64,000 bases of DNA from Candidatus Culexmicrobium cathedralense (GTDB lineage: Archaea; Thermoproteota; Methanomethylicia; Culexarchaeales; Culexmicrobiaceae). Shown piece after piece: positions 5,376 to 59,806 of this stretch; position 1 is the stretch's first letter; the number at the start of each line of letters is the position of its first letter. The stretch spans positions 96,001 through 160,000 of the forward strand of contig JANZKC010000004.1 in assembly GCA_025061115.1 (NCBI GenBank). Reading direction: 5' to 3'. Under the pieces are notes generated by a model. The model did no database searches. It saw only the letters and a program-made list of their open reading frames with translations, and was not told the origin of the DNA. The translations under genes were made by a program, and so were the position numbers.

Positions 5376-5462
5376 TGGAGCCCCGGGCGGGATTTGAACC
5401 CGCGACCAACGGCTTTCCTGCATTGTTACAAGGCCGCCGCTCTACCGCTGAGCTACCGGGGC
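5376..5462 (-). tRNA. tRNA-Thr(UGU) with 12-nt intron at 37/38 (5415-5426)
   Basis: Cloverleaf with GCGGC-CTTGTA[ACAATGCAGGAA]A-GCCGT; 75 nt after intron removal; CCA encoded. Confidence 0.92.
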
Positions 5463-39887: not shown

Positions 39888-40179
39888 CCTCCTCTAAAAA
39901 CCTCTCATCACCATACCTCAAAACAACACCCCTACGCTTAAGCTCACCAAAAAACTCCCAATAACTCAAACCAGAAACCTCAACAGCCCTACCAATCGAA
40001 ATCAAACCCCTAGAATACAAATCCAAAGCCAACCTCACCCTAAGCTCCCTAACACCAAACCTAATAGCATCACGCAAAACATCAGAACGATCCCTACCCA
40101 AAGCCCCAGCCAAAAAATCCAACTCCTCAAGCAACTCCACAGGCAAACGAACAGTAGTCACCTTAAACAAAACAAACAC
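39853..40179 (-). CDS. RHH + UPF0175 antitoxin
   Basis: TTVRLP..L.ELD...DRSDVLRDAI; LY..G.ISIGRAVEVSGLSYWEF. Confidence 0.85.
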   Translation of the reverse strand: MFVLFKVTTVRLPVELLEELDFLAGALGRDRSDVLRDAIRFGVRELRVRLALDLYSRGLISIGRAVEVSGLSYWEFFGELKRRGVVLRYGDERFLEEVGEFLGVGGCL

Positions 40180-40509: not shown

Positions 40510-41262
40510 TTAAATCGTTGAACTTCCAATTCCAAACCACTTAACTTCCTCCCTTAACCTGCGATACTTAAAATCAAATTTTCTCACTAGAAACACCATA
40601 AAAAGTCCTCCAAAGAGCATATTAAAGTCCTGGATAACTATGGACGCAATTAAACTAGCACCCCAAATTCTAATCATCAGTAGAATCGTTACCCTAAAGT
40701 ATTTCTTTTTAGCCGTTTCATACTCCTTAATCAATTCTCTTGGAGGCTTCTTATCACCTAAAACTGCACCTGCTATGGAGGCTGAATACATACAGGCGTT
40801 AAACAATATTTCCTCGGCATTTCGCCCAGGCTTAATGCTCTTAATCACACTTTTAACATAATGAGGTGAACATTTTGCCGAATCAATGCCCTTTCTTATT
40901 GCCTTCATTTCAACTTCCAAAAGCGCTAGATCTTCTTCCCCCTTTTCATGAGATAAACCCAAAACACCCTTAGCTACGCACCTATCCTGAACATAATGAA
41001 GCGCCCTACCCAAATTTTTCAAAGCCTCACGAAAATCCCCCCTCAAATAAGCCAATCTAGCACTCCAAATATATTTCATAATAACACTAAAAGGAGGCCT
41101 ATGATGAGGTACGTGTCTAGTATAGGATCTCCCACTACCAAATTTATCCGGATATCTATCAGGCTCAACAGAACCCTGACATAAATACTTCTCCCATGCT
41201 TTAGGCAAATTAAGCTCCCTACATATTGCCCTAGAAATAGCCACATGAGTTTTCCACTTCAT
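40510..41262 (-). CDS. Zinc-dependent phospholipase C / S1-P1-like protein with C-terminal TM helices
   Basis: Likely start MKWKTH (41262); GSVEPD, PHH, LGRALHYVQD, HE Zn ligands; hydrophobic C-terminus. Confidence 0.75.
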   Translation of the reverse strand: MKWKTHVAISRAICRELNLPKAWEKYLCQGSVEPDRYPDKFGSGRSYTRHVPHHRPPFSVIMKYIWSARLAYLRGDFREALKNLGRALHYVQDRCVAKGVLGLSHEKGEEDLALLEVEMKAIRKGIDSAKCSPHYVKSVIKSIKPGRNAEEILFNACMYSASIAGAVLGDKKPPRELIKEYETAKKKYFRVTILLMIRIWGASLIASIVIQDFNMLFGGLFMVFLVRKFDFKYRRLREEVKWFGIGSSTI

Positions 41263-41664
41263 CAAATTAAATAATTCAATTTTCAAATAATAATTTTTTA
41301 ATGAATAATCGGCATGATTTCGCAATTTCATTAAGCCCTTCCTGCTGAACCTATCTACGTAAGGCGTAGCATAAGCAGGATTTACATAATAAATTAAGCA
41401 AGCCAGTAGCAAGACTAGAAACACGATTAACATCACTCGATTTGTCAGAGCTCCCTAACTGCTTCACACAAGCTAGGGATGTTTTCCTAGGACAAAAAAG
41501 CAATAGCGAGAAATAAAATCAAAGTTGCAAATGCAGGCAAAGTCGCCTGATACGTCGTCAAGCAAATTCATGTGCCAATGGATAAGCTAACTAGAAAAGA
41601 GGCAAAACTAGGCTTATGACTTTAACCTTTCATTTTCCAACATCTTTTTCTTATATGATTATGC

Positions 41665-43667: not shown

Positions 43668-44561
43668 TTATCTATATTTCATGAGAACTCTTGCATTGTA
43701 AATTGAAAGCCAGTATTTCATCTTGCTAAAGTCTTTTGCTGAAAGGATTTCATTGATTGCCCTTTCAAGTATTGGATCTCCTAAAGATATCTTAAGTAAT
43801 TTATGATATCCAAGCTTACTAATCTTGCATCTCCTAATGTTGTCTTTGGTGAGATAATATATTTCTCTTAAATATGCGGCACGTATATGACTACTTGTGT
43901 CTAAGCTATCCACTATGTTTTTTAAGTAGTTTAACATAGATGGGCTTAAGACTCCAAGTAGATGCAATTTGGTCTTGCGTCCAATTTCATGTCTAATCGA
44001 TTTGACTATTTTCTTAATTTGGTTTAATTTTCCTTCTTTAATGAGAGGTACAAGTGAACCTATGGCTATATAGTTGGAACCCATTTCTGCAAGTTTTCGC
44101 GCTGAATAAGTATAGCTTTCTACATTCCATCCGTGAGCTACGGTAATTACTTCAACTCCGAGCTTATCAGCGAGCTTTAGATAGACTTCTGCTAGATCTA
44201 AATTTCTTTGCAAAATTTTTTGCTTAGCTTCCTGAGAAAGCTGTTTATTGACTAATGGGTGATCTTTCTGGATGATATAATCTGCACCTAGCCCGACTTG
44301 AATGTTAAATATGACGTTGATAGGTATAGCTTTATTTTCATGGCTCCAAAGAGAAGAAATTAATGAATCGACAATTAATTTACCTCGATAATTAAAGCAT
44401 GTTTTAAATCCTTTACTGATCAGATGATCCATATGGCGCTTAGAGTTCATTATATTGCCTAAACTAATTAGAATTCCATCAACTTCCATGTACTTCCAAT
44501 ATGGCGGGTCTTGAGGGTTTAATCTCCATGTTAGGTAGATTTTCAAGCGATTTCTCCTCAC
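43668..44561 (-). CDS. TGT-fold transglycosylase paralog lacking the Zn site
   Basis: LIVDS, KDHP, AHGW, AIGSLVP, LHLLGV, DSLDTSS motifs in TGT order; no CxCxxC. Confidence 0.8.
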   Translation of the reverse strand: MRRNRLKIYLTWRLNPQDPPYWKYMEVDGILISLGNIMNSKRHMDHLISKGFKTCFNYRGKLIVDSLISSLWSHENKAIPINVIFNIQVGLGADYIIQKDHPLVNKQLSQEAKQKILQRNLDLAEVYLKLADKLGVEVITVAHGWNVESYTYSARKLAEMGSNYIAIGSLVPLIKEGKLNQIKKIVKSIRHEIGRKTKLHLLGVLSPSMLNYLKNIVDSLDTSSHIRAAYLREIYYLTKDNIRRCKISKLGYHKLLKISLGDPILERAINEILSAKDFSKMKYWLSIYNARVLMKYR

Positions 44562-45490
44562 GCATAGAGGGATATTGCCTTTATAGCTTCTTCTGGATCT
44601 ATTTTTCCATTTCTGAGATAGATTTCATCATAGATTATTGCTGTTAACCTTAGAATTTCACCGGGATTACCATTAGTATAATCATATAATCTATCAACGA
44701 CACTTTCTGGAAGGAAGCTTGCAACCTCGGGTAGATATATTCTAAGGAATTCGAGGACTTCATTTTTTGTTAAATTTCTTAAGTATATTAGCATCGCTGA
44801 AAGGCGTCTAGACAAGGCCATGTTTATCGAGACAATTTCATCCCAGCCAGCTGGTGTAGAGGCAACTAGCATGAATAGATTATAAGAAGCGTCATCAATT
44901 AATCTTCTAAGAGCATTCATGTATGATAACCGCTTGTACTTTTTCAGCTCCAATATTGTTTCAAATTCATCGAGCAAAATCAAAATCAACTTATCACCTT
45001 CAAGAATTAATTGAGTTAGCATCTCCAAGGATGTCCAAACATCTAAATTCCTTGTTAAACCAAGCTTTCTACGAATCTTAGCATCAAGCTTCTCTCCCAA
45101 TAACCATAAGTAATAGAAGTATTCGTAGGTTTCAGAGGAATCAGCGGGTGTAATGGCTATCTTGTCATTGATTACTCTTAATGCTATCTCCTTATACATT
45201 CGATTTTTAAGTAACTTTCTCATCACCGCATTGTAGAGGTCTAGGAAGCTTCTACCAGGAGATGAAACGTAAATTGGAAGGACCTTTTTTGATGATGAAT
45301 ATACGTGCTCTAAATGCTTAAGAAAATGCGTTTTACCAAAGCCATAGCTTCCAATTATAGCTCCTGCGCCGGAAAACCTTCTTCGCTGAGATTTTTCAAT
45401 ATAGCTTCTTATGCGCTCAACATTTCCATCGGGATCAAACATTTTATCAAAGAAGCGAGGAATTGCAAGACGATTAAGCATAATCACCAC
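44558..45490 (-). CDS. P-loop ATPase, BrxD/DUF2791-like
   Basis: GSYGFGKTHFL, WLLGE, ILLDEFE, LRRLID, ALSRRL, TNGNPGE. Confidence 0.75.
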   Translation of the reverse strand: MVIMLNRLAIPRFFDKMFDPDGNVERIRSYIEKSQRRRFSGAGAIIGSYGFGKTHFLKHLEHVYSSSKKVLPIYVSSPGRSFLDLYNAVMRKLLKNRMYKEIALRVINDKIAITPADSSETYEYFYYLWLLGEKLDAKIRRKLGLTRNLDVWTSLEMLTQLILEGDKLILILLDEFETILELKKYKRLSYMNALRRLIDDASYNLFMLVASTPAGWDEIVSINMALSRRLSAMLIYLRNLTKNEVLEFLRIYLPEVASFLPESVVDRLYDYTNGNPGEILRLTAIIYDEIYLRNGKIDPEEAIKAISLYA

Positions 45491-46137
45491 TTCCCACTTT
45501 TGATGAAGATATACACGTATTTGCGACCCCTAACGCTAACTGCTCTACTAGAATTTTTGTCAAAGAGAGGTGCGGGAGCTAGGATCACGTTCTCTCGATT
45601 TTCATCAACAAATTTAGCAAGAAGCTCCTCGAAAACTTTTGAGCTCAAATTAAGCTCCTTAATAATGCACTTTCTTACCTCTACAATAGGCACGTACTTA
45701 GACCGCATATTTCTTGAAATCTTCCTGTAAGTCTCAATTATTTTGTCCATAAAAAGCGAGTAAATTTCTCTTTGCTTAGCTGGTGAAAGATAAAGTACTT
45801 CATTCAGCAGCCTAAGCGAAATATCCACAACTAACGCATTAAGACCCGTCTCTTCAGCTATACTTTTAATAGTCGTAAATCCACCAAAGTATGCATTTGC
45901 AACTCTCTCATACTCCGGCAGCCTCAAGAGATACTTATGTAAAATGTCTCCCCGCTTCTCACTATATGCTTCCAAAAAGATCTTGCCATCCTCAGTTATG
46001 GAGTAGCTTTCTCCATTATACGTTGCAAGCTCCATTTTTAACAAGGTATGAATCGCTTCAGAAGATCCACTATAGGCTTTACCAGCAGCAATATTGCTTA
46101 ATGTCCTTATCAAGGACTTAATGGTAACTGGTCTCAA
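45484..46137 (-). CDS. Winged-helix DNA-binding protein
   Basis: LLKMELA..SYSITEDGK wing; C-terminal YVPI.EVR..I..EL.LS..FEELL; overlaps the ATPase start. Confidence 0.6.
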   Translation of the reverse strand: MRPVTIKSLIRTLSNIAAGKAYSGSSEAIHTLLKMELATYNGESYSITEDGKIFLEAYSEKRGDILHKYLLRLPEYERVANAYFGGFTTIKSIAEETGLNALVVDISLRLLNEVLYLSPAKQREIYSLFMDKIIETYRKISRNMRSKYVPIVEVRKCIIKELNLSSKVFEELLAKFVDENRENVILAPAPLFDKNSSRAVSVRGRKYVYIFIKSGKW

Positions 46138-46219
46138 TGTCCTATCACCAGGATTTCCAGTACATTTGGCATTATGCTAATATATTGCTCTAAATCTAAA
46201 AGTTTTACGGGTACTCCAA

Positions 46220-46384
46220 ATGTTTAGTGAAGAAGAGGAGATAAAAATACTAGGTACTTCAAAAATTACGAGACGTTTCCAGGTGACAATAATTAAGGAA
46301 GTTAGAGAGCTCCTCAAAATAAAAATCGGAGATATCCTCGTATTTGAAAAGCATGGAGATAAAGTGATAATCAGAAGAGGTTGA
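46220..46384 (+). CDS. AbrB/MazE/SpoVT-family regulator (54 aa, below ORF-track cutoff)
   Basis: Manual translation MFSEEEEIKILGTSKITRRFQVTIIKEVRELLKIKIGDILVFEKHGDKVIIRRG. Confidence 0.85.
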   Translation: MFSEEEEIKILGTSKITRRFQVTIIKEVRELLKIKIGDILVFEKHGDKVIIRRG

Positions 46385-46390
46385 CCACAA

Positions 46391-48274
46391 TTATTGTGTG
46401 GACTTTTTAAAGCCGATCCAATTGAGTAAAGTTGGATTTTTAGCTTTGAAATGTAAATTAAGCATATCAAAGATGTGCTTAATGAGTAAAGTTTGATTTC
46501 TAACGCCCTTCACGGGGAACACTGTTGCCCTTATGTCGTGGTTATGATATGCCTTAGTAATTGGCGCTACTATCACAGCTCGATCATCCATAAGCAACTT
46601 ATTAACAGCTTCCTCAGCAGCCAGCAAATAGGCTTTGCTTAGATTAACGATGATTAAATCATAGTCGTCTTTAACGTAACTGAGAATTTTTTCCTCCACA
46701 TTGTGCTTTGAAGCCCATTTTCTAATCCAATCACTAGACTTTCCGCTGAATGTTGCATCATACGGTATAATGCGATCTTGCCCATGAATAACGCCATATC
46801 GAGCTGATATAAAAACTACATCAACTTTCACACCTTTGCTCCTAAGCTTATTAACACCTCTCTTAACAACTCTAAAATTGCCAGCATACATATCTTCAGC
46901 CTTCAAAATAAATTCGCTAAGCAATTTTCTGTAAAGACCTTCGTTCTCAATATCAAATTTAGGCTTACTTAGACCATAACTTCTCAATTTTTCGTCAATT
47001 TTTCTCCACTCAACATTTTTCTGAGCCGTGCAATTGGTTATCACAAGAATGTTCTTCAGCTTTGTTGGAATCCAAGGATTCAAGTCTAACAATTTTGTCA
47101 AATCTAGCTTTAAGTGCCTGCTTTTAGCTATTCTAAAGTTGACAAGTTTTTTCTCCTTCAAAAAATTACTAAACACCCACACATTATGGAAGCCTCTTCT
47201 CCTATTTCGATCATTACCTCTAAATATTACCACGTCAATTCCGATTTCACGACAAATTTTGCACTTGCACTTTTTCCAAGGCCTATTAATTAATAATTCA
47301 TAGTAGTATGGCAGGTAGTCTACTCCCCCATTAAGATAGACGTACTCTTCGACGAGCCGCCACAACTCCCTAAAATTCATCGCGCCTTCGTCATACCTAT
47401 GAAGCGCATCGAGCAACTCCTTTTCAAGTTTACTTTCTTTCCACACACGAATCGCAGTATAGGCTTTGCCATCCAAAGTAATGTAATTGCTAAAATGTCT
47501 AAGCCAAGCAATTCGAAGAACAGTCGAACTGTCAAATGACACCGTCTCAGCTATGCTGCCCTCCAATTCTTGAAACAGCGGAATAAGCTTAAGTCGAGCA
47601 ACTCCTAGAAAATGAAGTCTCCTAAGCTTAACACCATGCAACTCTCCACGGAGCTTTTTTATAAGTTTCTTAATGAAAACCGAACTGCGCCTAGCTAAAC
47701 CTCCAAGAGCAAAACTGTCAAATCCTTTACTGTAAAGTGCCTTGACAAACTTCACATAATCATTTGAATTAATGCCCTGCACTGCTGCCAACAACAAAAA
47801 CTTTTCCTTGAAATTCCTCCTCCACTCATCAAGCATCTTCAAAGCATTCTCATAAGTAATACGCATCCTCCACAACTGATCCTCAGCACTCGTGCCAAGA
47901 ATAGCTATATGATCAACAGTAACACCAAGATCAACACCAATTCTTGAATAAAACGTCAACATCTCAACGGGATCATATGGCGGGGTTATTTGACGGACAT
48001 ACTGCCAAGCACCGCAATCGCCCATAACCTCAGCATGCCCAGGTAATCTTAAAAAACTCTTAACGCCAAGCTCTTCAACACGCCTAACAATATGCTTAAG
48101 CTCCAAAACACTACGAGAGACCAGCACGCCCTCAAAGGGAATTTCGCCAAGAATGTGCCAAAGCCTAGCACCAAACCTAAATTTATCCTCTATAAAGCCA
48201 TCAGAGTGACGTTCTTCCTTAAAATCAAAACCACCATCAACGATATCATGCCAATCGGGGAGTAGATATTTCAT
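46391..48274 (-). CDS. dpdA: DNA 7-deazaguanine transglycosylase DpdA fused to a YaaA/DpdC/DUF6884-like domain
   Basis: MKY.LPD..D.VD..FDF, GVLVSR, GDCGAW, TVDHI, AVQG, ALGGL, LHFLG, SFDSS, YTAIRV, RPWKKCKCKIC..IFRG..RNRRRGFHN; C-terminal ITNCTAQK, AEDMYAG, ISARYGVI..IPYDATF. Confidence 0.88.
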   Translation of the reverse strand: MKYLLPDWHDIVDGGFDFKEERHSDGFIEDKFRFGARLWHILGEIPFEGVLVSRSVLELKHIVRRVEELGVKSFLRLPGHAEVMGDCGAWQYVRQITPPYDPVEMLTFYSRIGVDLGVTVDHIAILGTSAEDQLWRMRITYENALKMLDEWRRNFKEKFLLLAAVQGINSNDYVKFVKALYSKGFDSFALGGLARRSSVFIKKLIKKLRGELHGVKLRRLHFLGVARLKLIPLFQELEGSIAETVSFDSSTVLRIAWLRHFSNYITLDGKAYTAIRVWKESKLEKELLDALHRYDEGAMNFRELWRLVEEYVYLNGGVDYLPYYYELLINRPWKKCKCKICREIGIDVVIFRGNDRNRRRGFHNVWVFSNFLKEKKLVNFRIAKSRHLKLDLTKLLDLNPWIPTKLKNILVITNCTAQKNVEWRKIDEKLRSYGLSKPKFDIENEGLYRKLLSEFILKAEDMYAGNFRVVKRGVNKLRSKGVKVDVVFISARYGVIHGQDRIIPYDATFSGKSSDWIRKWASKHNVEEKILSYVKDDYDLIIVNLSKAYLLAAEEAVNKLLMDDRAVIVAPITKAYHNHDIRATVFPVKGVRNQTLLIKHIFDMLNLHFKAKNPTLLNWIGFKKSTQ

Positions 48275-48692: not shown

Positions 48693-51600
48693 ATGAAACT
48701 CATCTTGAGTTTCAATGAAATATCCAGACTGGGAAAACATTCATGGAAAAATTTGACTGATGAGCATAAAAAATTAAGTGAAGATTTAATAATCAGCATA
48801 AAGGACTATCTTGAAAATAAAAAGAAAAGACATTATGCTCATGTTATTGTTGCACCCTATGGATCAGGAAAATCAACATTATTAGACTACTTGGCATATT
48901 ACACTTGGAAAGAGCTTAAACGGCCTGCAATAATAGCTAATATGAACAGGATCTTAGAGTACATAAATAATAAGTATAAAAAGGAAACTAAAGGTAAGCT
49001 ACCCGAAGATAAGCTACCTGATATATTGGAGGAATTTTTCAAAGATTCATTGATTATGCTAAAAAATATAATACTTCATGAAAACAATGTGCCGTTACCA
49101 TTACGCTCAATTATTCCATTAAATGACATAATTTCAATAATTGATACTTTTCTTCAGAAAAATATAAGAGGATTACTATTAATAGATGAAGTTGAAGAGG
49201 CATTAAAGCAATTAAAAAATACAATAAATTACGTCACAAGCCCCTTTAGAGGATTATTTGATGCAATATACAATACTACATCAAAAATTTATGTAGTGAT
49301 CGCTTTTGGACCTCAAAGCGTATTAATGGAAGACATTCTAGGCTTATCCTCTGGATGGCGTAATGTAGTTAAAAGCATACCTTTATCCTCTCCTAGTATG
49401 ATTTTTAATGAACTTCAAAGGCTTCTTCCCAACGAAGAAAAGAAAATCTTAAGACTTCTTTCAAATACTTTATGGTGGATAAGTAAAGGAGGACGGCCCG
49501 GATGGGTTTATAACTTTATAGAACAAAGTTTTCCAAGAAAGGTTATTCATTGTTTAAAAAATTTTAATGAAAAAAAGGAGCTAATTTACGATGATGAGTT
49601 ACTAAAAGCTCTCAAGAAAGAAGTTGTTAAGGGTATACCCTGCTTTTCAGAATACGACTATATGAATATACTTAACTTCTTGCCAAGCGATAGCTATATA
49701 GAAAGAAATCTCTTTAAAGTACTACTCGTCTTGATAGGTCCCCTGAGTGAAAATGATATTAGGAGTTTAGGAATAAATTACGACCGCTGCATTAAATTAA
49801 ACCCCAAGATATTTGTCGTAGGAGATAAATTGATTCCTTATGATGCTTTCATCACGGCGGTTAGAAGAGATCTAGAGAAAGTTGCTAAAAGTCGAAAAGC
49901 ACTCGATTATAGAGATGGCAAAATTATTGAAAGAGCCATAAACCTTCTTGCCTTAGTTTTTAGTGCTTGGTCAGCCTTTGTCAATAAAATCCCCATGATA
50001 TTAGATGAGAGAGATGCGTGGCAAGAACTTAAAGACATAGCAGCTGACTTAAGTCGAGAAATGTATGATACAGAAACAGCCCGCCTAATAGAAAATTTTG
50101 AAATTCGTTGGCTTAAAATACCAAAAGAAGCCTATACTCCCGATGGTATAGTCTATGTAGCAATGCATCCAAGAATTATTGAAAATATTTACCCTCCAAT
50201 ATTTTCTATCCCTCTAATAGGTAAAGCGCGTCTAGATGGAATAGATGAAGTATACCCGTTTCTACGAGATCAAGATTTAGAATATCTATCTGAATTAGCA
50301 CAACAGCTTTTTGGCATTTTAGCTCACATCTTAAGCAATCAGAAAAATCAAGTTAAAGATGTTGCTGAAAAATATCTACTGGTGCCAATTATAGACGGAA
50401 GTAATTTGAATAAAATAAAAGAGTACATATTTAACAGTAAACTTAATGGAAAACATCCAATTTTAATTCCACTAAGTCCATCAGGTGAAAAACTGAAAAA
50501 AACAATAGACCTACTTAAGAAGGAACTTAAAAGTTTTGATGAATTGCAAATAACTACAATATTAGAAAGAATTAGTCCTCGTATGTCCATTTTTGTATTA
50601 GGCATTCTTTATGATATTGCTCATCAGGGCAAAAATGAAATATTATATACAGAGAGTGAAGAGGGATTAGCGAGAATAGAAAGAAGAATATTAGAGTCAT
50701 ATTCACGACAACTACTATTAATACTTTATGAAGCCATAATGGAAACAAAACGTGCCATAAGTTTGCAAGAACTATTACCTGATTATGTTTTAGAGCTTTG
50801 TAAGAAACTTGATGAGCAGGCTCATAGTAAGTTAGGATCAAAAAGAGCAGAAGACCTTTGGTGCGTTCTTGCATCTCAAAAGACTATTGAAATATACGAA
50901 AAAATAATTGAATGTTTGAATGAAATTAATCATTTGACATCGGACCTTGTTGAGATTATTTATCCCGATGAAAGAGAGATCATTAAGGGCTTGCTAGTTA
51001 AAAAAGGCGCCTTAGATTATGTGAGGGATGCAAAAAGTTTATTTGAAAAATTATCTAAATGCTTAAGAGATAATAACACATTTAATATGCTAAAATTAAT
51101 ATTAGAAGATGTTTTGAATCAAGAAAAATACATAGATTCTTTATTTAACAGAATTCAACATTCACTAAAAGAAATCTTTAAAGAAATTGAATATAAGAGT
51201 GTTTGGTACGCATTAACGTCATATTTGACTCATATGCTGGCAGATCAATGCTCAAATCCTTATATTAAAGGATTAAATGGAAAAGACTTGCAATTTGAAA
51301 AATCCAAGCTTAAAATTAAGTTAGGTAAATTGAAAGATAAACTTAATATTAATAAGCTTAAAGAACTTGCTAACTTAATGGAAAATTACCATTTGCCACA
51401 ATTCATAGAAATGTTAAGAGAAAGACTTGAAAAATTTGAGAAAGTGTTAAACAAACTAAAATCTTTAATAGAAGATCTTAAACCAACAAATATCTATGAA
51501 AAATGGACTTATACTGTTGCTTTTATTAAAAAAGAAGCTGAAAGAAGTTTTATGGAGAACATAACAACTATACTTGAAAACCTTGATAGTAAACTTTTGG

Positions 51601-51890
51601 GTAGCTATGCTAGTTATTTAACTCAAATTAGCGATATCTTTACGAAGACAATCCCAGATTTAAAAAGTAGAATCTATAATATTAGCGAAAGTGGAGAACC
51701 GGTTCTCAATGAAGATTTGAAAACAATACTCAAAAGAAATTCAAATCTTAAGAGTTTGCGTGATCAACTTCAAAATTATATAACTCAATTACAAGGCGCG
51801 CTAAATGACCTAGGCAGGTACCCCATTAAACATGACTTCAAGAAACTGCTCACTCTCCTTGATGAGATAAACGAGATGATGATGGTATGA
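48693..51890 (+). CDS. Large P-loop ATPase with helical C-terminus (DpdH-like by size and position)
   Basis: APYGSGKST, LLLIDEVEE, SKGGRPGW; 1065 aa. Confidence 0.7.
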   Translation: MKLILSFNEISRLGKHSWKNLTDEHKKLSEDLIISIKDYLENKKKRHYAHVIVAPYGSGKSTLLDYLAYYTWKELKRPAIIANMNRILEYINNKYKKETKGKLPEDKLPDILEEFFKDSLIMLKNIILHENNVPLPLRSIIPLNDIISIIDTFLQKNIRGLLLIDEVEEALKQLKNTINYVTSPFRGLFDAIYNTTSKIYVVIAFGPQSVLMEDILGLSSGWRNVVKSIPLSSPSMIFNELQRLLPNEEKKILRLLSNTLWWISKGGRPGWVYNFIEQSFPRKVIHCLKNFNEKKELIYDDELLKALKKEVVKGIPCFSEYDYMNILNFLPSDSYIERNLFKVLLVLIGPLSENDIRSLGINYDRCIKLNPKIFVVGDKLIPYDAFITAVRRDLEKVAKSRKALDYRDGKIIERAINLLALVFSAWSAFVNKIPMILDERDAWQELKDIAADLSREMYDTETARLIENFEIRWLKIPKEAYTPDGIVYVAMHPRIIENIYPPIFSIPLIGKARLDGIDEVYPFLRDQDLEYLSELAQQLFGILAHILSNQKNQVKDVAEKYLLVPIIDGSNLNKIKEYIFNSKLNGKHPILIPLSPSGEKLKKTIDLLKKELKSFDELQITTILERISPRMSIFVLGILYDIAHQGKNEILYTESEEGLARIERRILESYSRQLLLILYEAIMETKRAISLQELLPDYVLELCKKLDEQAHSKLGSKRAEDLWCVLASQKTIEIYEKIIECLNEINHLTSDLVEIIYPDEREIIKGLLVKKGALDYVRDAKSLFEKLSKCLRDNNTFNMLKLILEDVLNQEKYIDSLFNRIQHSLKEIFKEIEYKSVWYALTSYLTHMLADQCSNPYIKGLNGKDLQFEKSKLKIKLGKLKDKLNINKLKELANLMENYHLPQFIEMLRERLEKFEKVLNKLKSLIEDLKPTNIYEKWTYTVAFIKKEAERSFMENITTILENLDSKLLGSYASYLTQISDIFTKTIPDLKSRIYNISESGEPVLNEDLKTILKRNSNLKSLRDQLQNYITQLQGALNDLGRYPIKHDFKKLLTLLDEINEMMMV

Positions 51891-53131
51891 TAAAAGGAAA
51901 AGCAATTGATTTCCTTAAAAAAATAAGTAATGAAAGACGTGAAATTGAACAACACTTAAAAGAGTCATTAGAATATGCAGAAAAAATTAAAGAAATTATA
52001 GAAAATTATCCTGATTTTTGCAACCATATCCGAAGACCATCTAAGCCGAAAGGGTTATGTCTAGATGAAATAAAGCAATGTAAGAATGAACTACAAGAAA
52101 TTTATATTGAGCTAATTGCTACAGCTGTCTTGAATAGTTTAAATATGGATTTTATTACTAAATCATCACTTATAGGCATAGTCCAACCTATAGCTGAAGA
52201 AATCCATGAAGGAGTCTTGTCTTTTAAAAACCTAATAATGCCAAAAGAATTTGGTATAGCTTTGTCAGAAGCTATATCGAGCTACGATCCTAATGTTGTA
52301 CGTTCTGTTATCAAAAGCCTTTATACCGAGGATTTAGAAAATATTATGAAAATTAATGATGTAATTTCTAAGGTGAAGAAGAATGCAATTACATTTTACG
52401 GTAAAGATCATGCGAAAGAAATAGAAGAATTGTTGCTTAACTTGTTAAAACATTATGTGAGAAAGATTTTTGATAAAGAGGTAACTGTAAAAATAATGCT
52501 CGATGAAATAAAAGAACTTCAAGAACTAATACATGAAGCATATGTTATGACAACAAATTGTAATGCTATTTCTATACCTCGAACTAATGTATTAAAGAAT
52601 TATATGATTAGGGCCTTCGCAACAACAATATGTGATTATCTGAATAAACTTATTAAGACGTGTCATCAGTTACAAGAATTGCCTAAACAAAGTAAATGTA
52701 CTAAATGGAAAGAAAATATTGAAAAAACATTAAAAAATATTAAGCTTCTTATTAGTGAAATTGAAGATGAAAAATATTCTAAATTATTTAAAATACAAAA
52801 AATAATAAATAAATTAGATATATCTAATAACATTAAAAATAATATCGCTTCCTTAATACAAAAAATGTTACAAAAAAATGGGCATTTAAATGAAAAACTT
52901 TGGTTAGAACTTGATGAAAAGTTAAACAATATTTTTAGAGGAACGATAAATGACGAACAACAAATATTACTTAATGTAATTTTTTCAATGTTAACTGATG
53001 AAAAACGTGAGATGACTATTATAGAAATAATTGAACATGCCACGAAGAAAGTGGCTAATAAGGATAAGATGCTTAAAGCGTTGTATGAGCTTTGTGAAAA
53101 AGGCTTGGTAGAGTGTTTTGTAAGGGTGTAG
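51887..53131 (+). CDS. Coiled-coil protein with C-terminal wHTH (DpdI-like by position)
   Basis: ATGA overlap with the ATPase; helical; ends LKALYELCEKGLVECFVRV. Confidence 0.55.
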   Translation: MIKGKAIDFLKKISNERREIEQHLKESLEYAEKIKEIIENYPDFCNHIRRPSKPKGLCLDEIKQCKNELQEIYIELIATAVLNSLNMDFITKSSLIGIVQPIAEEIHEGVLSFKNLIMPKEFGIALSEAISSYDPNVVRSVIKSLYTEDLENIMKINDVISKVKKNAITFYGKDHAKEIEELLLNLLKHYVRKIFDKEVTVKIMLDEIKELQELIHEAYVMTTNCNAISIPRTNVLKNYMIRAFATTICDYLNKLIKTCHQLQELPKQSKCTKWKENIEKTLKNIKLLISEIEDEKYSKLFKIQKIINKLDISNNIKNNIASLIQKMLQKNGHLNEKLWLELDEKLNNIFRGTINDEQQILLNVIFSMLTDEKREMTIIEIIEHATKKVANKDKMLKALYELCEKGLVECFVRV

Positions 53132-53135
53132 ATTC

Positions 53136-55763
53136 ATGCCTCTTCCCGTTCCCCCTAAAAATATTGTAGAAATATTTACCACTAATGGTCGTAGTGAGGA
53201 TTTTGCTAAAAGATACGTTGCTAATGCTATTTTATCATTAATTGAAGAAAAAGAACAGCAACATATACAAAACCTGGATTATGATGCTTGGGTAAAACTT
53301 TCTTATAAAGATATATGCGAGAAGATTATAGAATATGTGAACCATTTTGCTCGTGCAATTAATTCAAGGGGTTTGTCGTATGATGATGTAAACCATTCTG
53401 AACTATCTGAATATATAGCATGTGTTCTTTACACATTTGCGTCAGAAGGTATTTATGAGGCGCATCATAGCCGCTACATAATAATAAGGGGTGAATATGA
53501 TGTTAATGCAATTAAGGATAAATTGACGAATAGCTTTCTAGAGGTCAGAAGTAGGTTTATTGAAATCGCACGTAACCTTGTGAAAGTAAAACAAAGATTT
53601 TGGAATACATCGATATATGAGGCAAAACCATTGATAGATAGAGTTTTTGCATACGTTGAACCAAGGTTTTTACCTATTGATGTTGTTGATATATATCAAA
53701 TTTTGGATGCCCTGGCTGAGAGAGTTAAAGTATTATATGAGGTTTTTTGTGGGAAGTTACGTAAAGAAGAGAATTCTCAAACAAAGGATTTCCTTGGGGA
53801 AGTTGTAAAAAATTTTCTTCAAAAAGTTATAAAATTTAGGCTTTACGAATATCAGGTGCGAGGATTAATACAAATTTTAAATAACGTTAAAGATTGCATC
53901 GATAAATGCGTGGAAAGAGCAGTAGTATTACAAGCACCAACAGGTTCCGGAAAAACTGAAGCTTTCGTTTTGTCGATTATTCTTGCTTCTCTTGCGTATA
54001 AAGCCGCTTTAGATTGGGATAATAAATCACCTGCTGCGCTCATTATTTACCCGCGTAGAGCTTTAGCAACAGATCAACTGAAACGACTAATTACTTATTT
54101 ATTCCATATCAATAATGTACTTAAAGATGTTGGTAATAGGAGAAAACAAAAGTATGCCAAGTTAAGGCTTTCAATTAATTATACTGAAATAAGACCTATG
54201 AGAGAATATGAGGCTTTAGCAAAAAAGGTTCAACAAGAGAAGCCTAGAGAGTGGAAAGAATATAAAATGAATTACATAAAGGTATTGTCGAAATATAGCA
54301 ATGAAGGTGAAGTTTTAGTAAAATTGCCATTTCTGTGGCTACCTGAAAGTGATGAAAATCCCTGTATTGTAGTCTCATCAGACAGTTACATATGGTATAA
54401 CCAGGACATGGATTTTGTTACAGTAACTAAAGAAGATGTTTATGAAAAACCAGGCGACATTCATGTAACCCTATTTGAGACCTTGAGAAATAACTTAAGA
54501 AATAAAAGAGCACATCCTATTTTTGGTTTTCCTTATGAGTATGGTCCCTTTATAATTGTATTAGATGAAGTGCATACTTATATAGGCATAACAGGCGCAA
54601 GATACGCGTATCTTCTCGATAGATTATTAATGGTTATTAAATGCCGTACCAATCGCCATACAAGAGGTGTTTTGTTTGTATGTGTAAGTGCTACTGTACC
54701 TAATCCTGAAAACTTTATAAAAAAATTATTAGCTGTAAAAGAATTTGCCATAGTGTCTCCGAGAGAAGCAGAGACTATCCCCCTTGGGAACGAATATTTC
54801 TACGTAATAATTCCTACGACCAAATATCTTGTAAACCACTTAGCAGTTTCTATACAAGCTGCTATGGTTCTGCATTTCAATATACCTGCATTAATTGAAG
54901 AAAAAGGAAAGAAAAAGAAGAGTTTTATCTTTTCGGACAACCTTGACGTCATCGAAAGATTTCGAAGAGACTTTGGAGATGCCATTAATAGAAAATTGCA
55001 AGATCTCAGAAATCCCCTAGATCCTGCTTTTTACGATAAGACGATTAAGGAGTTTGGTGATGGACTATGTTGGAAAGAAGCACTTGATAAACCGTGGTTA
55101 CTAGAATACCTTAAGTCGTGGAAAGAGGGTGAATATTGGTGGCCGTATGCATTGGAGAAAAAAGAGGGATTAACATTTGACAAATTATCAAAATATACGG
55201 GACCTGAAAAAGGAGATGTAAAAGAGAGTGATATTGTCGTTGCAGATTCTGCGCTGGAGTTAGGGGTGGATTATAGGGATGTTGTCGTAATATATCAACA
55301 CGGCATTCCATTAAGTATTGCTTCATTAATACAAAGAGCCGGACGTTCAGGTAGAATTGTGCGAGACAACCCCCTTGTAAGGGTGGCTGTAGCAGTAATG
55401 TTATCTCCATACATCCCTTCACAGGCAGCTCTATTCCAACTTCTTATTAGAAGCGAATCATTAAGGAATGTTCTTGAATATGAAAGTTTGAATATACCTG
55501 TTGGCAATAAGAAATTAATAGCTCAAACTATAGTGGAAAGTATTTTAGATTATATGTCGTTAAAACCCCAACACTTAATGAGGTTTGAAGATATCGAAAA
55601 AAGATTACTTACATTCTTAAATAAAGAGGGGCGCTCCATTGTTCAATATATTAAAGATATGTTGAGGAGGCGTGCGGTTATGCTAAAACTCGAGATAGAT
55701 GATGTGATAAAAAGCACATTAGATACATTAATCGAAGAACTGAAAGATGCTTGGGAGGCTTAA
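53136..55763 (+). CDS. dpdJ: SF2 DEAH-box helicase, DpdJ/DrmA/YprA-like
   Basis: YEYQ, APTGSGKTEAF, IYPRRALATDQ, LDEVHTY.G..GA, VSATVPNP, FSDNLDV, LELGVD, QRAGRSGR. Confidence 0.8.
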   Translation: MPLPVPPKNIVEIFTTNGRSEDFAKRYVANAILSLIEEKEQQHIQNLDYDAWVKLSYKDICEKIIEYVNHFARAINSRGLSYDDVNHSELSEYIACVLYTFASEGIYEAHHSRYIIIRGEYDVNAIKDKLTNSFLEVRSRFIEIARNLVKVKQRFWNTSIYEAKPLIDRVFAYVEPRFLPIDVVDIYQILDALAERVKVLYEVFCGKLRKEENSQTKDFLGEVVKNFLQKVIKFRLYEYQVRGLIQILNNVKDCIDKCVERAVVLQAPTGSGKTEAFVLSIILASLAYKAALDWDNKSPAALIIYPRRALATDQLKRLITYLFHINNVLKDVGNRRKQKYAKLRLSINYTEIRPMREYEALAKKVQQEKPREWKEYKMNYIKVLSKYSNEGEVLVKLPFLWLPESDENPCIVVSSDSYIWYNQDMDFVTVTKEDVYEKPGDIHVTLFETLRNNLRNKRAHPIFGFPYEYGPFIIVLDEVHTYIGITGARYAYLLDRLLMVIKCRTNRHTRGVLFVCVSATVPNPENFIKKLLAVKEFAIVSPREAETIPLGNEYFYVIIPTTKYLVNHLAVSIQAAMVLHFNIPALIEEKGKKKKSFIFSDNLDVIERFRRDFGDAINRKLQDLRNPLDPAFYDKTIKEFGDGLCWKEALDKPWLLEYLKSWKEGEYWWPYALEKKEGLTFDKLSKYTGPEKGDVKESDIVVADSALELGVDYRDVVVIYQHGIPLSIASLIQRAGRSGRIVRDNPLVRVAVAVMLSPYIPSQAALFQLLIRSESLRNVLEYESLNIPVGNKKLIAQTIVESILDYMSLKPQHLMRFEDIEKRLLTFLNKEGRSIVQYIKDMLRRRAVMLKLEIDDVIKSTLDTLIEELKDAWEA

Positions 55764-58081
55764 AATTGTTCAAATTAAGTCATACAAAGGTCTTATGCAG
55801 ATATCTCCCTCCTACTCTATTTATGGAAACAAATCTACCTGCCGTTAAAATTAAAATGGGGAAAAAGAACGTGAGGAGTGAAGATATTGAACTATCTTTA
55901 TCAACATATTTACCAGGAAAAGTAAGCTTTAGATGCGTTCCTGGTCTCATAGTACCTATTTATAAATCTCGTAAACGCAGGAAAAATAAACTTGTAATTA
56001 TCACCGATAAGGTATATGAGCTTAGAAGCCCACTGTTAAGCTCTCATGAAAAAGAAAAAATTAGAGAAGAATTGCCATTTTCTTTTAAGGTTTATCTAAA
56101 TACGTTTGGGCTTCCATGGAAAGTAGACTTTTATAGGCTTGGCGGTGTTAATGCTCAGCCTTTTCTTTGGAATAACGGCTATCACTGGATGTTGTGGTTG
56201 ACGAAAGAGCATATGATGTCAATAGTTTTTGAAAAGAAAGATATTGAGAACATTCTCAAAAGATATAGAATCAAAAACATATACTTTCTAACAGAAAGAT
56301 CAACTGTTTATCCGCTATTTAATTTGACAGTACTTAAATCTCTTGAAAAAACAGCTAATACTTTGCAATCTATCGCTAAAAGGCTGGGTTTCAATTTTAT
56401 TGAAAGTGACGTGAGTTATTACTCAGCTGATATATTTAAGTATCTTTACGCTTTAAATTTAGAACTTGAAGTTCGCGCTGTCAGATCCTCTCAATATAAT
56501 AACTCTTGTTCTCTACCCCAGCTTAGAAAAGTTACAAGGTTTAAACGAAAAATCATAGGTACAAGGATACTTGCTAGGGATGAAGATATGTTGTCTCCTA
56601 TATTGTTAGGATTTAAAATTGAAGATACCCCTTTATTGAAGTTAACTCCCGATGTTGAAGAGTTTATAGAGTATTTTTTAAAGAAAGGCTCGCAATTAAT
56701 AATTCAAGATTCTTTATCGGGTTATACGAAATATGCTATAATAATGGACTTGACTATAAATCAACTTTTAGGAGATATAGGTTGCCATAAATTGCTTACC
56801 AATTTAAATCATGTTTTTTCGTATTTTGATATTTTCTGCAACGAACCAATACTTGATATTATTGAAAATGGAGATAATCTGTTTCACTACCTTCTGTGGT
56901 TTGACGAAAAACTAAGTGAAACAAGTAAATGCCCTGCAGATCTTTTGATATTTAAAGAGATAATTGGCGAACGTTTATCGTCTTGTAACTTTTTATCAAA
57001 GATAAAAAAGATAAATCAAAGTATTAAAGAGAAAATCGAGAACAGACTAAAGGAAATTTCAAGTCAAGTTAAAGAAGCTAAATTTAATATACTAATGTCA
57101 ATTCTTAATCATACTTTTAGTCACCATTTTCTTAAGGCTATAACTTTTAGAAGTAGTGTCAACAGCAGATACCTCGGAGAAATTTATCATTCATACTTTA
57201 CCCATCCCAATTCTGGGAAATATAAATCGTTTTATATATATGAAATATCATCAGGAGGCGTTGGAGCCCTTGAATCTGTTGTAAATACTTGGCAAACAGA
57301 TAAACAGAGTTTCATTATTGATGTCTTATTGCAAGCAGGGTCGTGTATTATAGGTATGCCTGAAGATTTGGTCTATAATATGCTACTTAAGAATTATAAG
57401 CCGCCTTCATCGATTGATGAGGCGAGATGTTATGTTATACAGGGACTCAAAGACGTAGATCTTCTAATAACGCCTGAGGAGTGTGAAGAAGCTGCGAGAT
57501 TATCGTTTAGTATAACCAAGGAATTTGATATGAGAGGTTGGGACATTGCTAAAGAGGTTGCTTACTGTAGAAGGGCGCTTGAAGATAAAATTAAAAGAAC
57601 TGCCTTATCTCATGAAATATGCATTAATGTTCTTAAGAACCTTAGCTCTTGTAAGAATTGCAAAGAAGTGCTTGAAGAAATCATTCAAAGGACAAGTGAA
57701 GCACAGGGTTGGAATGTTGACGTAGAAATTCTAGATGAAATAAGAGAGGCTCTTTTCAATGTAGAAAACAAATTAGTCGAAAAAATAAGGAAAGGTGATA
57801 AAAGCATGAGAAAAATTGTAAGAGAAATTGGAAGGATACTAGAGGCGGCTTTACTGAGATTTGTTCTTACATCATGTCCAACAGCTTGCGGTTGGTGCTA
57901 TATTAACTCTAGTGGATGTAGTGAAAGCTCAGCACCATGGCTTCAAGCATTGACTCTAAATAGGAGATTGTTAAAACACTATGCTACATGGACATTAAAG
58001 AGGGTTAGAGATAAGAGAAATGAAGGTCTAACCTTAGCTTCAGTAAAAATTGGAGGAGACGTAATAAAAGTAATAGGGTAG
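55751..58081 (+). CDS. DUF1998/MrfA Zn-binding domain protein (DpdJ C-terminal half / DrmB-like)
   Basis: HTFSHHFL, IYE..SGGVG, SC...CPTACGWC...C, LNR.LL; overlaps the helicase stop. Confidence 0.72.
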   Translation: MGGLKLFKLSHTKVLCRYLPPTLFMETNLPAVKIKMGKKNVRSEDIELSLSTYLPGKVSFRCVPGLIVPIYKSRKRRKNKLVIITDKVYELRSPLLSSHEKEKIREELPFSFKVYLNTFGLPWKVDFYRLGGVNAQPFLWNNGYHWMLWLTKEHMMSIVFEKKDIENILKRYRIKNIYFLTERSTVYPLFNLTVLKSLEKTANTLQSIAKRLGFNFIESDVSYYSADIFKYLYALNLELEVRAVRSSQYNNSCSLPQLRKVTRFKRKIIGTRILARDEDMLSPILLGFKIEDTPLLKLTPDVEEFIEYFLKKGSQLIIQDSLSGYTKYAIIMDLTINQLLGDIGCHKLLTNLNHVFSYFDIFCNEPILDIIENGDNLFHYLLWFDEKLSETSKCPADLLIFKEIIGERLSSCNFLSKIKKINQSIKEKIENRLKEISSQVKEAKFNILMSILNHTFSHHFLKAITFRSSVNSRYLGEIYHSYFTHPNSGKYKSFYIYEISSGGVGALESVVNTWQTDKQSFIIDVLLQAGSCIIGMPEDLVYNMLLKNYKPPSSIDEARCYVIQGLKDVDLLITPEECEEAARLSFSITKEFDMRGWDIAKEVAYCRRALEDKIKRTALSHEICINVLKNLSSCKNCKEVLEEIIQRTSEAQGWNVDVEILDEIREALFNVENKLVEKIRKGDKSMRKIVREIGRILEAALLRFVLTSCPTACGWCYINSSGCSESSAPWLQALTLNRRLLKHYATWTLKRVRDKRNEGLTLASVKIGGDVIKVIG

Positions 58082-58085
58082 TTGG

Positions 58086-58862
58086 ATGATCATGTTCTTC
58101 ATTTACAGAACCATTGGATCAAGTAAGATAGAACAAGCGTTTCTTGACCTTTTTTACGAGGAGTTTTTAACTGAGGAACATGATGATATCTATATAATCT
58201 CACCATGGATAACACCATTTAGTTTCTCTAAAAAAATTGTAGTATACCCATACATAGTTGCTGATAACATTGTAGATGTATTGTTAGGGCTAGTAAAGAT
58301 AGGCGTTAAAGTTAAGATTCTAACGCGTTGTATTGATGATCTGTTACCTCTTGATAAACTGTATTTAGTGGATCTTATATTACAGTCCGCAGGTGACGAA
58401 GTTAATTACAAAGTGCTACGTGAAATTTATGATTATTTGATAAATGATATTAAATGGGCAATAAATCGTATGAAAGCGATAATTCTGCTTTCTAAAAGTG
58501 GAATAGAAATAAGGTACGATGTAGGTGAAGATCTTTATTCAAATAGACTTCACTCAAAAATGTATGTGGGAAGTAAAAAAGCTATTATTGGCTCTGCAAA
58601 TCTGACACAGAGCGGTATTGTTGATAATAGAGGAAATAAAGAATTCATATTAGTAGTTGATAGAGAAGAGCCTTTATACGAGAAAATACGAGAAGCTGCC
58701 ATAAAGTATTTCGAACAAGGATATAACTTTGAAAGATGTGAGAAAAGAATTATTAGAACAATAAATCGCATACTTACTGAGAAGTTCATAAGCCTCAACG
58801 ATTTTATGAAATACATGGAAAGAGTTCTAATATCTATCAGTCCAAAAACCAAATACCGTTAA
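58086..58862 (+). CDS. dpdK: PLD-family nuclease (DpdK/DrmC-like)
   Basis: IISPWI, LHSKMYV...GSANLTQSG...NKE. Confidence 0.75.
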   Translation: MIMFFIYRTIGSSKIEQAFLDLFYEEFLTEEHDDIYIISPWITPFSFSKKIVVYPYIVADNIVDVLLGLVKIGVKVKILTRCIDDLLPLDKLYLVDLILQSAGDEVNYKVLREIYDYLINDIKWAINRMKAIILLSKSGIEIRYDVGEDLYSNRLHSKMYVGSKKAIIGSANLTQSGIVDNRGNKEFILVVDREEPLYEKIREAAIKYFEQGYNFERCEKRIIRTINRILTEKFISLNDFMKYMERVLISISPKTKYR

Positions 58863-59557: not shown

Positions 59558-59806
59558 TTGGCGGTTGTGAATATTGACAGTAGAGGCAGGCTCACCATAC
59601 CTAGAAAGATGAAGGTGAAAAGCACGAGAGCCATAATAATTCCAGCCGGAAGCTTCTTCATAATAATTCCCATCCCCCCAAAGCCCATCAACTACGCTAA
59701 AAGCTGGTTGAAAACAAGCAAAACCCGACGCGAATTAAAGAAAATGGCAGAAGAACTAGCCAAGAAAGATGCAGTCAAGAGAGCCGAGAGGAGGAAGCAG
59801 CAATGA
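59558..59806 (+). CDS. AbrB-family antitoxin (VapB)
   Basis: VNIDSRGRLTIPRK; overlaps the PIN gene. Confidence 0.85.
   Translation: MAVVNIDSRGRLTIPRKMKVKSTRAIIIPAGSFFIIIPIPPKPINYAKSWLKTSKTRRELKKMAEELAKKDAVKRAERRKQQ

Follow-up and report, generated by a model that had tools for sequence, protein, structure and literature searches.

Bacterial Dpd systems, as known from Salmonella Montevideo, combine the DNA-modification genes dpdA, dpdB and dpdC with the restriction genes dpdD to dpdK. BRIGADE, a further system, has been described from halophilic archaea only (Bell et al., 2025 preprint, bioRxiv 10.1101/2025.09.15.676423); the main text of this preprint names neither a tRNA-guanine transglycosylase (TGT), nor DpdA, nor a transglycosylase, and counts "DpdG, DpdHI/BrxC" among the shared factors. 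It is not settled by which route 7-deazaguanine enters DNA in Dpd systems lacking DpdB. A testable answer is offered by a locus in Candidatus Culexmicrobium cathedralense, of which a stretch of 64,000 nucleotides has been analysed (contig JANZKC010000004.1, positions 96,001 to 160,000, hereafter the window), namely an initiator-type AAA+ ATPase with a winged-helix (wHTH) partner and a transglycosylase reduced to its catalytic core. The three genes form a conserved part of a defence system in archaea, in which a 7-deazaguanine base probably labels the cell's own DNA. Based on sequence comparisons, we lean with some reserve towards a reading in which the Orc1/Cdc6/TnsC-like ATPase and the wHTH protein replace DpdB, and in which the minimal TGT (short TGT in the following) acts as a second DNA-guanine transglycosylase that depends on them.

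The locus resembles bacterial Dpd in that it encodes a DpdA above the equivalog cut-off, a domain of the DpdC/DUF6884 type, a helicase like DpdJ and a PLD nuclease like DpdK, and in that two sets of divergently oriented genes lie on an island gained by horizontal transfer; the island, at ∼40–60 kb of the window, has a GC content of 30–38% against ∼45% around it. The locus differs from bacterial Dpd in that DpdA and DpdC are fused, that the helicase is apparently split into two genes, and that DpdB has not been found, its position being occupied by the genes for the wHTH protein (45484..46137, 217 residues), the ATPase (44558..45490, 310 residues) and the short TGT (43668..44561, 297 residues in the longest frame), in this order downstream of the DpdA-DpdC fusion (46391..48274, 627 residues) and all on the minus strand. 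No match to the PADLOC models of DpdD to DpdI has been obtained among the scanned open reading frames (ORFs) of the window. In their longest frames the genes for the short TGT and the ATPase overlap by 4 nucleotides and those for the ATPase and the wHTH protein by 7, so that the ORF coordinates agree with the three overlapping minus-strand genes downstream of dpdA of the original prediction, which had been made from the sequence alone, and the gene layout likewise bears out its placing of the ATPase-wHTH pair at the dpdB position. Between the stop of the fusion gene and the trio lies a spacer of 253 nucleotides (46138..46390, minus strand), read directly from the sequence, whose A/T-rich TTTAGA...ATATAT 5′ of the wHTH start may belong to a promoter of the trio's own. 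The helicase/PLD operon faces the trio.

For the short TGT, the TTG at 44546 is the likelier start codon, giving 292 residues, because the resulting N-terminus MKIYLTW is like that of its homologues, the entry P0001 from the search of protein clusters has the same length of 292 residues, and a GAGGAG, overlapping the stop codon of the ATPase gene, precedes it. The protein passes the cut-off of the Pfam TGT family (PF01702, 2.1e-7, 30.8 bits vs 26.3 bits) and matches the PADLOC models of DpdA with 2.9e-22 and of "TGT" with 3e-4; with the NCBIfam DpdA equivalog NF041059 it reaches 79.2 bits, below the 200-bit cut-off, in a match confined to residues 87–241. An AlphaFold2 model built on 19 relatives (pLDDT 92.4, pTM 0.90) has retrieved the archaeal TGT (arcTGT) 1iq8 (TMq 0.80, E 4.9e-14), DpdA 7ui4 (E 5.5e-13) and bacterial TGTs (TMq 0.72–0.78) in Foldseek, and a profile search against the PDB has returned 1iq8 with 1.6e-16 and 7ui4 with 8.6e-15. 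The model thus confidently predicts the (beta/alpha)8 barrel of the TGTs. Model, PDB matches and alignments bear out the original prediction in taking the 297-residue protein for a second TGT with its acidic residues in place, and show it to be a DpdA-like paralogue whose catalytic residues are intact; the motifs quoted for it (VDS, KDH, VDSLDTSS and LHLLG) are all present in the translation, along with VAHGW and YN. Residues D65, D100, H143 and D221 align to Asp95, Asp130, His181 and Asp256 of DpdA, which have been assigned as the acid/base (Asp95), the base-recognition residues (Asp130 and His181) and the nucleophile (Asp256) (PMC10164549); no substitution of D65, D100, H200 or D221 occurs in 19 relatives, which are 25–53% identical to the short TGT. 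HGW in place of QG, which the original prediction had read as a departure, turns out to be a DpdA signature and no anomaly, because 7ui4, the Salmonella DpdA, has VAHGW at the aligned place and His181 is named as base-binding residue: VAHGWNVESY in the short TGT stands against VAHGWNKKSY, and most other members of the short-TGT family have QGW at this position.

The predicted loss of the zinc site, with YN for HN, has been confirmed in alignments with relatives: the short TGT contains no CxCxxC and no cysteine in the aligned region, its only two cysteines being C55 and C245. The motif CxCxxC...HN is kept by five short relatives, by the haloarchaeal and Chloroflexi small TGTs and by the DpdA-DpdC fusion of the window. 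The short TGT is moreover a bare barrel, from which all C-terminal tRNA-binding domains of arcTGT are missing. That it is a housekeeping tRNA enzyme placed in the island by chance could draw on the TGT fold and on a weak match to TgtA (arcTGT, 41.7 bits), and is scarcely credible: besides the missing tRNA-binding domains, the genome encodes a full-length arcTGT elsewhere (C4:80712-81686, 278 bits, with the window at C4:96001-160000), and the short TGT occurs in only 2 of 401 genomes of the phylum, as judged by its operon partner, always within the same defence-type gene set and low-GC island.

In a maximum-likelihood tree of 67 rows (quick search, SH-aLRT support only, rows of bacterial TGTs and phage DpdAs left out), the short-TGT family including the window's protein forms a clade of its own with 23 rows and a support of 99, outside the canonical DpdA clade (34 rows, support 99), which holds the window's fusion and the bacterial DpdAs. 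The zinc-less forms appear as a nested subclade (18 rows, support 98), and the five short-clade rows outside it keep CxCxxC..HN. The DpdA1–4 of phages and viruses resemble the short TGT as small stand-alone DNA transglycosylases; that of phage 9g misses two of the four zinc ligands (PMC5699537), and a flexible substrate range has been reported for phage DpdAs (PMC10516641). The short TGT differs from them in residing in a cellular operon with an ATPase and in giving no match to DUF6610 (DpdA4) in the family scan. A viral origin has been rejected after searches of phage records and IMG/VR: tblastn against 50,697 phage records has yielded a single partial match (54% of the query, 26.8% identity, E 1e-7), and the IMG/VR scan with the patterns used has yielded no relative. 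A further precedent for zinc loss, and the one zinc-less TGT described in defence, is Cap10 of type IV CBASS, a TGT-family protein that has no zinc site, retains a catalytic Asp/His pair and binds a deazaguanylated protein N-terminus (10.1101/2025.04.06.647259). The short TGT shares with it the family, the missing zinc and the defence setting and likewise keeps H200 and D221, so one may ask whether it binds or transfers protein-attached 7-deazaguanine instead of acting on DNA. We consider this very improbable. Cap10, as described there, works on a protein substrate with the QueC-like Cap9 and a CD-NTase, and neither a Cap9/QueC-like conjugating enzyme nor a CD-NTase has been found among the island ORFs scanned; the short TGT fits the DpdA model of PADLOC much more closely than the "TGT" model, and its haloarchaeal counterpart retains the zinc site.

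Regarding the ATPase, family searches have returned PF01637 (archaeal ATPase_2, 2.4e-11), PF10923 (BrxC_BrxD, 1.8e-9) and the PADLOC model of BrxD (5.4e-11). The BrxD-like character claimed in the original prediction thus holds for partial matches: PF10923 passes its cut-off (37.5 vs 22.2 bits) and covers residues 129–231 only. It does not extend to the whole protein, which reaches 40.7 bits against the 350-bit cut-off of the NCBIfam BrxD equivalog (residues 128–223 only) and whose predicted structure is of another type. The model (pLDDT 89.5) has found A. pernix ORC2, P. aerophilum Cdc6 and TnsC as top matches in Foldseek, with TM-scores to the Orc1/Cdc6/TnsC structures of about 0.5–0.6 at 12–18% identity, and in the profile search against the PDB the best solved relative has been TnsC (2.1e-6); by its model, the ATPase is structurally an AAA+ protein of the Orc1/Cdc6/TnsC type. 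Orc1/Cdc6 and TnsC are AAA+ proteins that act on double-stranded DNA with ATP as platforms to which a second enzyme is recruited at a selected site. Activity of the trio's ATPase is probable, since its Walker A (GxYGxGKxH) and Walker B (DE) motifs are invariant in 13 orthologues and its nearest structures are DNA-bound initiator or matchmaker AAA+ proteins. Its model ends after the AAA+ lid helices without a winged-helix domain, and this function may sit in the separate wHTH protein. The latter shows a match to Pfam HTH_45 below the cut-off (E 0.0019) and weak matches to MarR and Sso10a in the PDB (E ∼0.2); end-to-end homologues with 15 invariant columns precede the ATPase gene in 11 other loci. 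PADLOC models of DpdG, DpdH and DpdI have given no match for trio-type proteins. A BREX context is not apparent, with no PglZ or PglX match among 19 ORFs scanned with PADLOC and weak BrxHI/BrxHII matches for the helicase only. Complex prediction for the wHTH protein, ATPase and short TGT, with the short TGT as the partner, has scored 0.00 in two runs and speaks neither for nor against binding; a three-chain job is moreover unlike the calibration of the tool.

The canonical dpdB elsewhere in the genome that the original prediction had considered has not been found: two PADLOC models have retrieved none from the window's genome (99.99% complete, 25 contigs). With one of these models, none has been found either in G161, a complete genome of the same phylum, or in a Vulcanisaeta and a Halobacteriales metagenome-assembled genome (MAG), and the same model has recognised the bacterial controls from Ferrimonas and Shewanella with 3.4e-153 and 1.4e-155. 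An iterated search with two bacterial DpdBs over 63 loci has detected DpdB in 11, all bacterial (seven Pseudomonadota, three Actinomycetota and one Bacteroidota), and in none of the cyanobacterial, Chloroflexi or archaeal loci among them.

Relatives of the trio are few in the Thermoproteota. A word-based search of 5.8 billion protein clusters has recovered the short TGT itself and two relatives with 52% and 49% identity, and an exhaustive profile search 410 proteins at E≤1e-3, 14 of them at E≤1e-30, with about twenty full-length relatives of ∼290–315 residues among the matches; in the scan of the genome collection, a 7-sequence alignment has yielded relatives and a 3-sequence alignment none. 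In the sample of 401 genomes of the phylum, the ATPase profile has reached E≤1e-10 in 26, and a strong full-length match has been found in two only, the window's genome (1.4e-143) and G161 (5.3e-105); in each of the other 24, the match is partial, does not exceed 66 bits and lies in an ORF of 377–1404 residues. As judged from these sequences, the system is rare in the phylum and conserved as a unit. The order wHTH, ATPase, short TGT is common to G161, the metagenome contig L005 and the Caldivirga and Vulcanisaeta MAGs L015 and L016. G161 contains the full nine-gene system, the counterpart of the 414-residue protein discussed below being assigned by position and size. In L015 and L016, the genes for the DpdJ-like helicase, the 776-residue-like protein and the PLD protein are followed by DpdA-DpdC on the opposite strand and then by the trio, with the stretches starting at the helicase and the NTPase end lying outside; in the Desulfurococcaceae contig L017, the short TGT is followed by DpdA-DpdC. 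A DpdA-DpdC gene is thus present at the same locus in the window, G161, L015, L016 and L017. L005 carries the trio divergent from the NTPase, a 391-residue gene and the DpdJ-like helicase. Because the fusion gene resides on the opposite strand in G161, L015 and L016, the trio has to be a separate transcription unit there.

TGTs dimerise through a surface that includes the zinc subdomain, and loss of this subdomain could mirror a changed partner. The short TGT might therefore serve as a non-catalytic or regulatory partner of the fusion's DpdA domain, with the ATPase-wHTH pair loading the heterodimer. The eukaryotic heterodimeric TGT offers a precedent (PMC10164549), in which QTRT2 is non-catalytic (10.1101/2025.04.06.647259), and, as with QTRT1 and QTRT2, two TGT paralogues that may pair are encoded together, recurrently so in four crenarchaeal loci, in 28 of 30 haloarchaeal stretches and in Chloroflexi loci with a TGT of ∼300 residues by DpdA. 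The short TGT differs from QTRT2 in keeping every catalytic residue and having lost the zinc site instead, and such invariance throughout the short family is not expected of a purely structural subunit. Its gene is furthermore tightly coupled to those of the ATPase and the wHTH protein and not to the fusion, which is found on the other strand in the three genomes named above, 3–7 kb away in some haloarchaeal loci, and has not been seen in L005 (20.9 kb). In sum, we regard the heterodimer as unlikely.

A corresponding gene set has been found in haloarchaea. The Halobacteriales MAG L059 encodes, in this order, a TGT of 341 residues, a wHTH-like protein of 287, an ATPase of 396, a DpdA-DpdC of 563 with DUF6884, and GTP cyclohydrolase I; its ATPase is homologous to that of the window (8e-21), and its wHTH protein is recovered with 1.3e-10 by a profile from the window's wHTH protein and three relatives. 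Orthologues of the ATPase at E≤1e-83 occur in 52 of 401 sampled Halobacteria, about one in eight. Minimal TGT, wHTH and ATPase follow one another in this order in each of the 30 haloarchaeal loci returned, and in their stretches of up to ±10 kb the complete trio is present in 29 and DpdA-DpdC in 28; one of the two remaining stretches has the gene ∼18 kb away on the same contig, and the other has lost the TGT too. The genome-wide count of DpdA-DpdC in Halobacteria, made at a threshold of 1e-25 that is too strict for the scorer, gives 6 of 401 with borderline values and is uninformative. Occurrence of the trio apart from dpdA, raised in the original prediction, has not been seen, save for the partly covered contig L005: DpdA-DpdC stands alongside in the window, G161, L015–L017 and 28 of the 30 haloarchaeal stretches. 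In several haloarchaeal loci, genes for a QueC-like and a radical-SAM protein occur along with two more conserved genes; a PLD protein accompanies a Druantia/DISARM/DpdJ-like helicase in one locus, and a second locus encodes a Csa3-like protein. In haloarchaea DpdA-DpdC occurs as one gene of ∼967 residues or as adjacent genes of ∼733 and ∼234 residues (one or other form in L133, L134, L138, L139, L142, L144, L146, L149, L154 and L159 versus L132, L135–L137, L140 and others), and these forms are much longer than the crenarchaeal fusion (612–627 residues) owing to an extra N-terminal part.

By the description in the preprint, the haloarchaeal trio loci match BRIGADE. Shared are homologues of the wHTH protein and the ATPase, aligning end to end, beside a minimal TGT and DpdA-DpdC; the loci fit BRIGADE in a Druantia/ARMADA-like YprA helicase, a PLD protein, a Csa3-like regulator and preQ0 genes. 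The original prediction had not recognised the module from described systems, which no longer holds, given that Halobacteria commonly carry homologous wHTH and ATPase genes beside a minimal TGT and DpdA-DpdC, within BRIGADE as the preprint describes it. The window's system differs from BRIGADE in its phylum, in a helicase that scores best on DpdJ and in its minimal TGT, which is DpdA-like and zinc-less, while the haloarchaeal one is arcTGT-like with 141 bits to TgtA and 38 to DpdA, retains the zinc site, and takes its place at the base of the ingroup adjoining the arcTGT outgroup in the tree. A homologous wHTH-ATPase pair therefore accompanies catalytic-core-only TGTs of two ancestries, a pairing that agrees, as far as the sequences tell, with DNA binding and catalysis being shared out between different proteins. 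We see an outside chance that the trio goes further and constitutes a self-sufficient, ATP-driven, sequence-targeted DNA base-exchange machine, mechanistically unrelated to DpdA/DpdB and writing a second mark. Under the same low joint probability, this machine would have been assembled twice, with a DpdA-like TGT in Thermoproteota and an arcTGT-like one in Halobacteria, the second mark would concern another motif, the other strand or another base, and the base, salvaged in the window's organism, might not be preQ0.

In the reading towards which we lean, the trio and the DpdA-DpdC fusion would each supply one half of the module that marks DNA in a modification-restriction system of the Dpd type. 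The wHTH protein and the ATPase would bind DNA and prepare or mark target sites with ATP, as DpdB, a ParB/DndB-like ATPase unrelated to that of the trio, does for bacterial DpdA. The short TGT would reach DNA through them and swap guanine for a 7-deazaguanine base, probably preQ0; its dependence on partners for DNA access is suggested because it has neither the tRNA-binding domains nor the zinc subdomain. The fusion would insert preQ0 and turn it into the amide ADG, and the NTPase, the DpdJ-like helicase and the PLD nuclease of the divergent operon would attack unmarked DNA. We favour this reading because the catalytic residues are conserved, the operon is tight, and the pair recurs with two unrelated small TGTs. 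Beside DpdA-DpdC, the minimal TGT might also take one of the roles named in the original prediction, inserting a different base, serving a second motif, or acting as a reader or glycosylase.

Several points weigh against it. A second active TGT has no obvious need if the fusion alone inserts and converts preQ0, and DpdA-type enzymes are not strictly loader-dependent, since phage DpdAs act without any ATPase (PMC10516641). No DpdA-DpdC is present in the 20.9 kb of L005, where a further ∼10 kb, on the side that holds the fusion in G161, lies outside the stretch; the trio of L005 may work without the fusion, or the fusion may reside in the remaining ∼10 kb. The window's genome contains no true QueC (best 31 bits vs a 150-bit cut-off) and neither a recognisable QueD/PTPS nor a YhhQ-type transporter. 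Finally, the ATPase and the wHTH protein may just as well have a part in sensing or restriction. In that case, the TGT would test or excise guanines at unmarked sites while the AAA+ and wHTH proteins scan DNA. The trio does abut the NTPase/helicase operon in the window and in L005, TGT chemistry begins with guanine removal through a covalent intermediate (PMC10164549), restriction glycosylases are a known class (PMC10273834), and without QueC and QueD the exchange may be starved of incoming base. The haloarchaeal trio, however, sits with DpdA-DpdC and often with preQ0 biosynthesis genes, and large helicase genes are not always found within 10 kb of it, a company that places the trio among the modification genes; guanine excision without regulation would moreover poison the host. 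A role of the whole trio in such a sensing or restriction arm thus appears quite improbable.

As to the base supply, the QueC matches in the window's genome have been rejected as ThiI and an NAD-synthase-like PP-loop protein, and a third Pfam TGT match in the genome (C3) as a carboxylase subunit (PYC_OADA/HMGL). QueC-class genes are present in G161 and three MAGs. A genome of the same family, G003, is also devoid of QueC. A 624-residue ORF of G003 weakly matching the short TGT has been discarded as a DpdA-DpdC fusion, as it matches only the PADLOC model "TGT" (4e-4) and no trio is nearby.

The haloarchaeal form of the module is covered at the system level by the BRIGADE preprint, and Dpd is well known; the four-gene module has not been found by name in the literature searched, with BRIGADE judged on the main text of the preprint. 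New in the window are the other phylum, the DpdJ-type helicase in its apparently split form and the zinc-less, DpdA-like small TGT. If the proposed reading is true, a Dpd/BRIGADE-type system is extended to hyperthermophile-related archaea, and Cap10 is joined by a second natural case, the short TGT, in which a TGT fold serves defence without its zinc subdomain. Genetic tools exist for haloarchaea, and knock-outs combined with nucleoside mass spectrometry should therefore be feasible. Were the ATPase-wHTH pair to select the sequence, the trio might be developed into a tool for programmable base exchange in DNA.

The remaining genes of the system complete this picture. The fusion scores 269.9 bits on the NCBIfam DpdA equivalog, above the 200-bit cut-off, and 7.1e-75 on the PADLOC model of DpdA; PADLOC DpdC matches residues 407–528 with 5e-10, and Pfam DUF6884 with 7.8e-6, placing the DUF6884/DpdC domain at about residues 407–565. 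Its DpdA barrel contains the zinc motif CKCKIC..HN and the catalytic Asp residues in the alignment. The divergent operon, on the plus strand and presumed to do restriction, starts with a P-loop NTPase (48693..51890, 1065 residues), which has given weak nSTAND3 and ResIII matches only and no PADLOC match, and has orthologues in L005 (1.4e-54) and G161 (1e-45). It is followed by a protein of 414 residues (51887..53131) with no family above cut-off in Pfam, PADLOC or NCBIfam. A similar-sized gene is located 3′ of the NTPase in L005 (391 residues) and G161 (423 residues), and a single-sequence search with the 414-residue protein has recovered neither of them. The DpdJ-like, YprA-family DEAD/DEAH helicase (53136..55763, 875 residues) matches PADLOC DpdJ with 1.4e-58 and DrmA with 1.6e-23, as well as Pfam DEAD and Helicase_C, and reaches 190 bits on NCBIfam DpdJ against an 800-bit cut-off. 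The next protein (55751..58081, 776 residues) is possibly its split-off C-terminal part, as suggested by weak matches to the C-terminus of DpdJ (PADLOC 3.2e-5, NCBIfam 5.5e-4 at model positions 1118–1216), and has orthologues in L015, L016 and G161. A PLD-family nuclease resembling DpdK/DrmC (58086..58862, 258 residues) closes the operon, with matches to PLDc_2 (2e-11) and PADLOC DpdK (6e-9), and 31 bits on NCBIfam DpdK against a 100-bit cut-off.

Further arrangements without DpdB have been encountered among the loci compared. In the Chloroflexota loci L019, L022, L027, L029 and L034, a second TGT of ∼300–320 residues is encoded divergently beside a DpdA of 406–451 residues, so two-TGT Dpd loci are not limited to archaea. 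The second TGTs of L019 and L027 keep the zinc site and have QG; those of L019, L022, L027 and L034 form their own clade in the tree, and no DpdB has been found in these two-TGT stretches. DpdAs of 671–718 residues, matching the window's fusion with 1e-69 to 1e-78, occur in Cyanobacteriota (L018, L020–L025, L028, L031, L033, L036, L039, L040, L042, L043, L045 and L047, of which L028 is an unclassified bacterial MAG), and no DpdB homologue lies within ∼10 kb on either side of their genes. The Aenigmatarchaeota MAG L035 combines a DpdA-DpdC fusion of 577 residues with a second, canonical-clade DpdA of 387 residues, in the company of GmrSD-, HerA- and NurA-like genes and a JAB protein; neighbours of the Aenigmarchaeota and Roseiflexus DpdA genes comprise GmrSD, HerA, NurA and JAB, with no homologue of the ATPase or the wHTH protein among them.

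Other genes of the window's low-GC island include, at its edge, a 368-residue protein (38076-39182, plus strand) with a C-terminal PLD nuclease domain (DrmC-like, 5.3e-8) and a stretch weakly resembling AAA_assoc_C/winged-helix, a Pfam family to which the wHTH protein of L005 is weakly matched as well. A protein of 308 residues (40510-41436, minus strand) has hydrophobic ends and a near-threshold match to zinc-dependent phospholipase C (25.1 bits vs a 26.8-bit cut-off). Small genes flank the island at 39339-40179 (minus strand) and 59803-60225 (plus strand); among them are a PIN-domain protein of 140 residues (6.7e-9) and an overlapping pair of 182 and 108 residues that is toxin-antitoxin-like by appearance. 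At 5376-5462 of the window (minus strand), ARAGORN has reported a tRNA to which it assigns no definite identity and whose anticodon has four bases (tgta); this may be an archaeal tRNA gene with an intron or another unusual feature.

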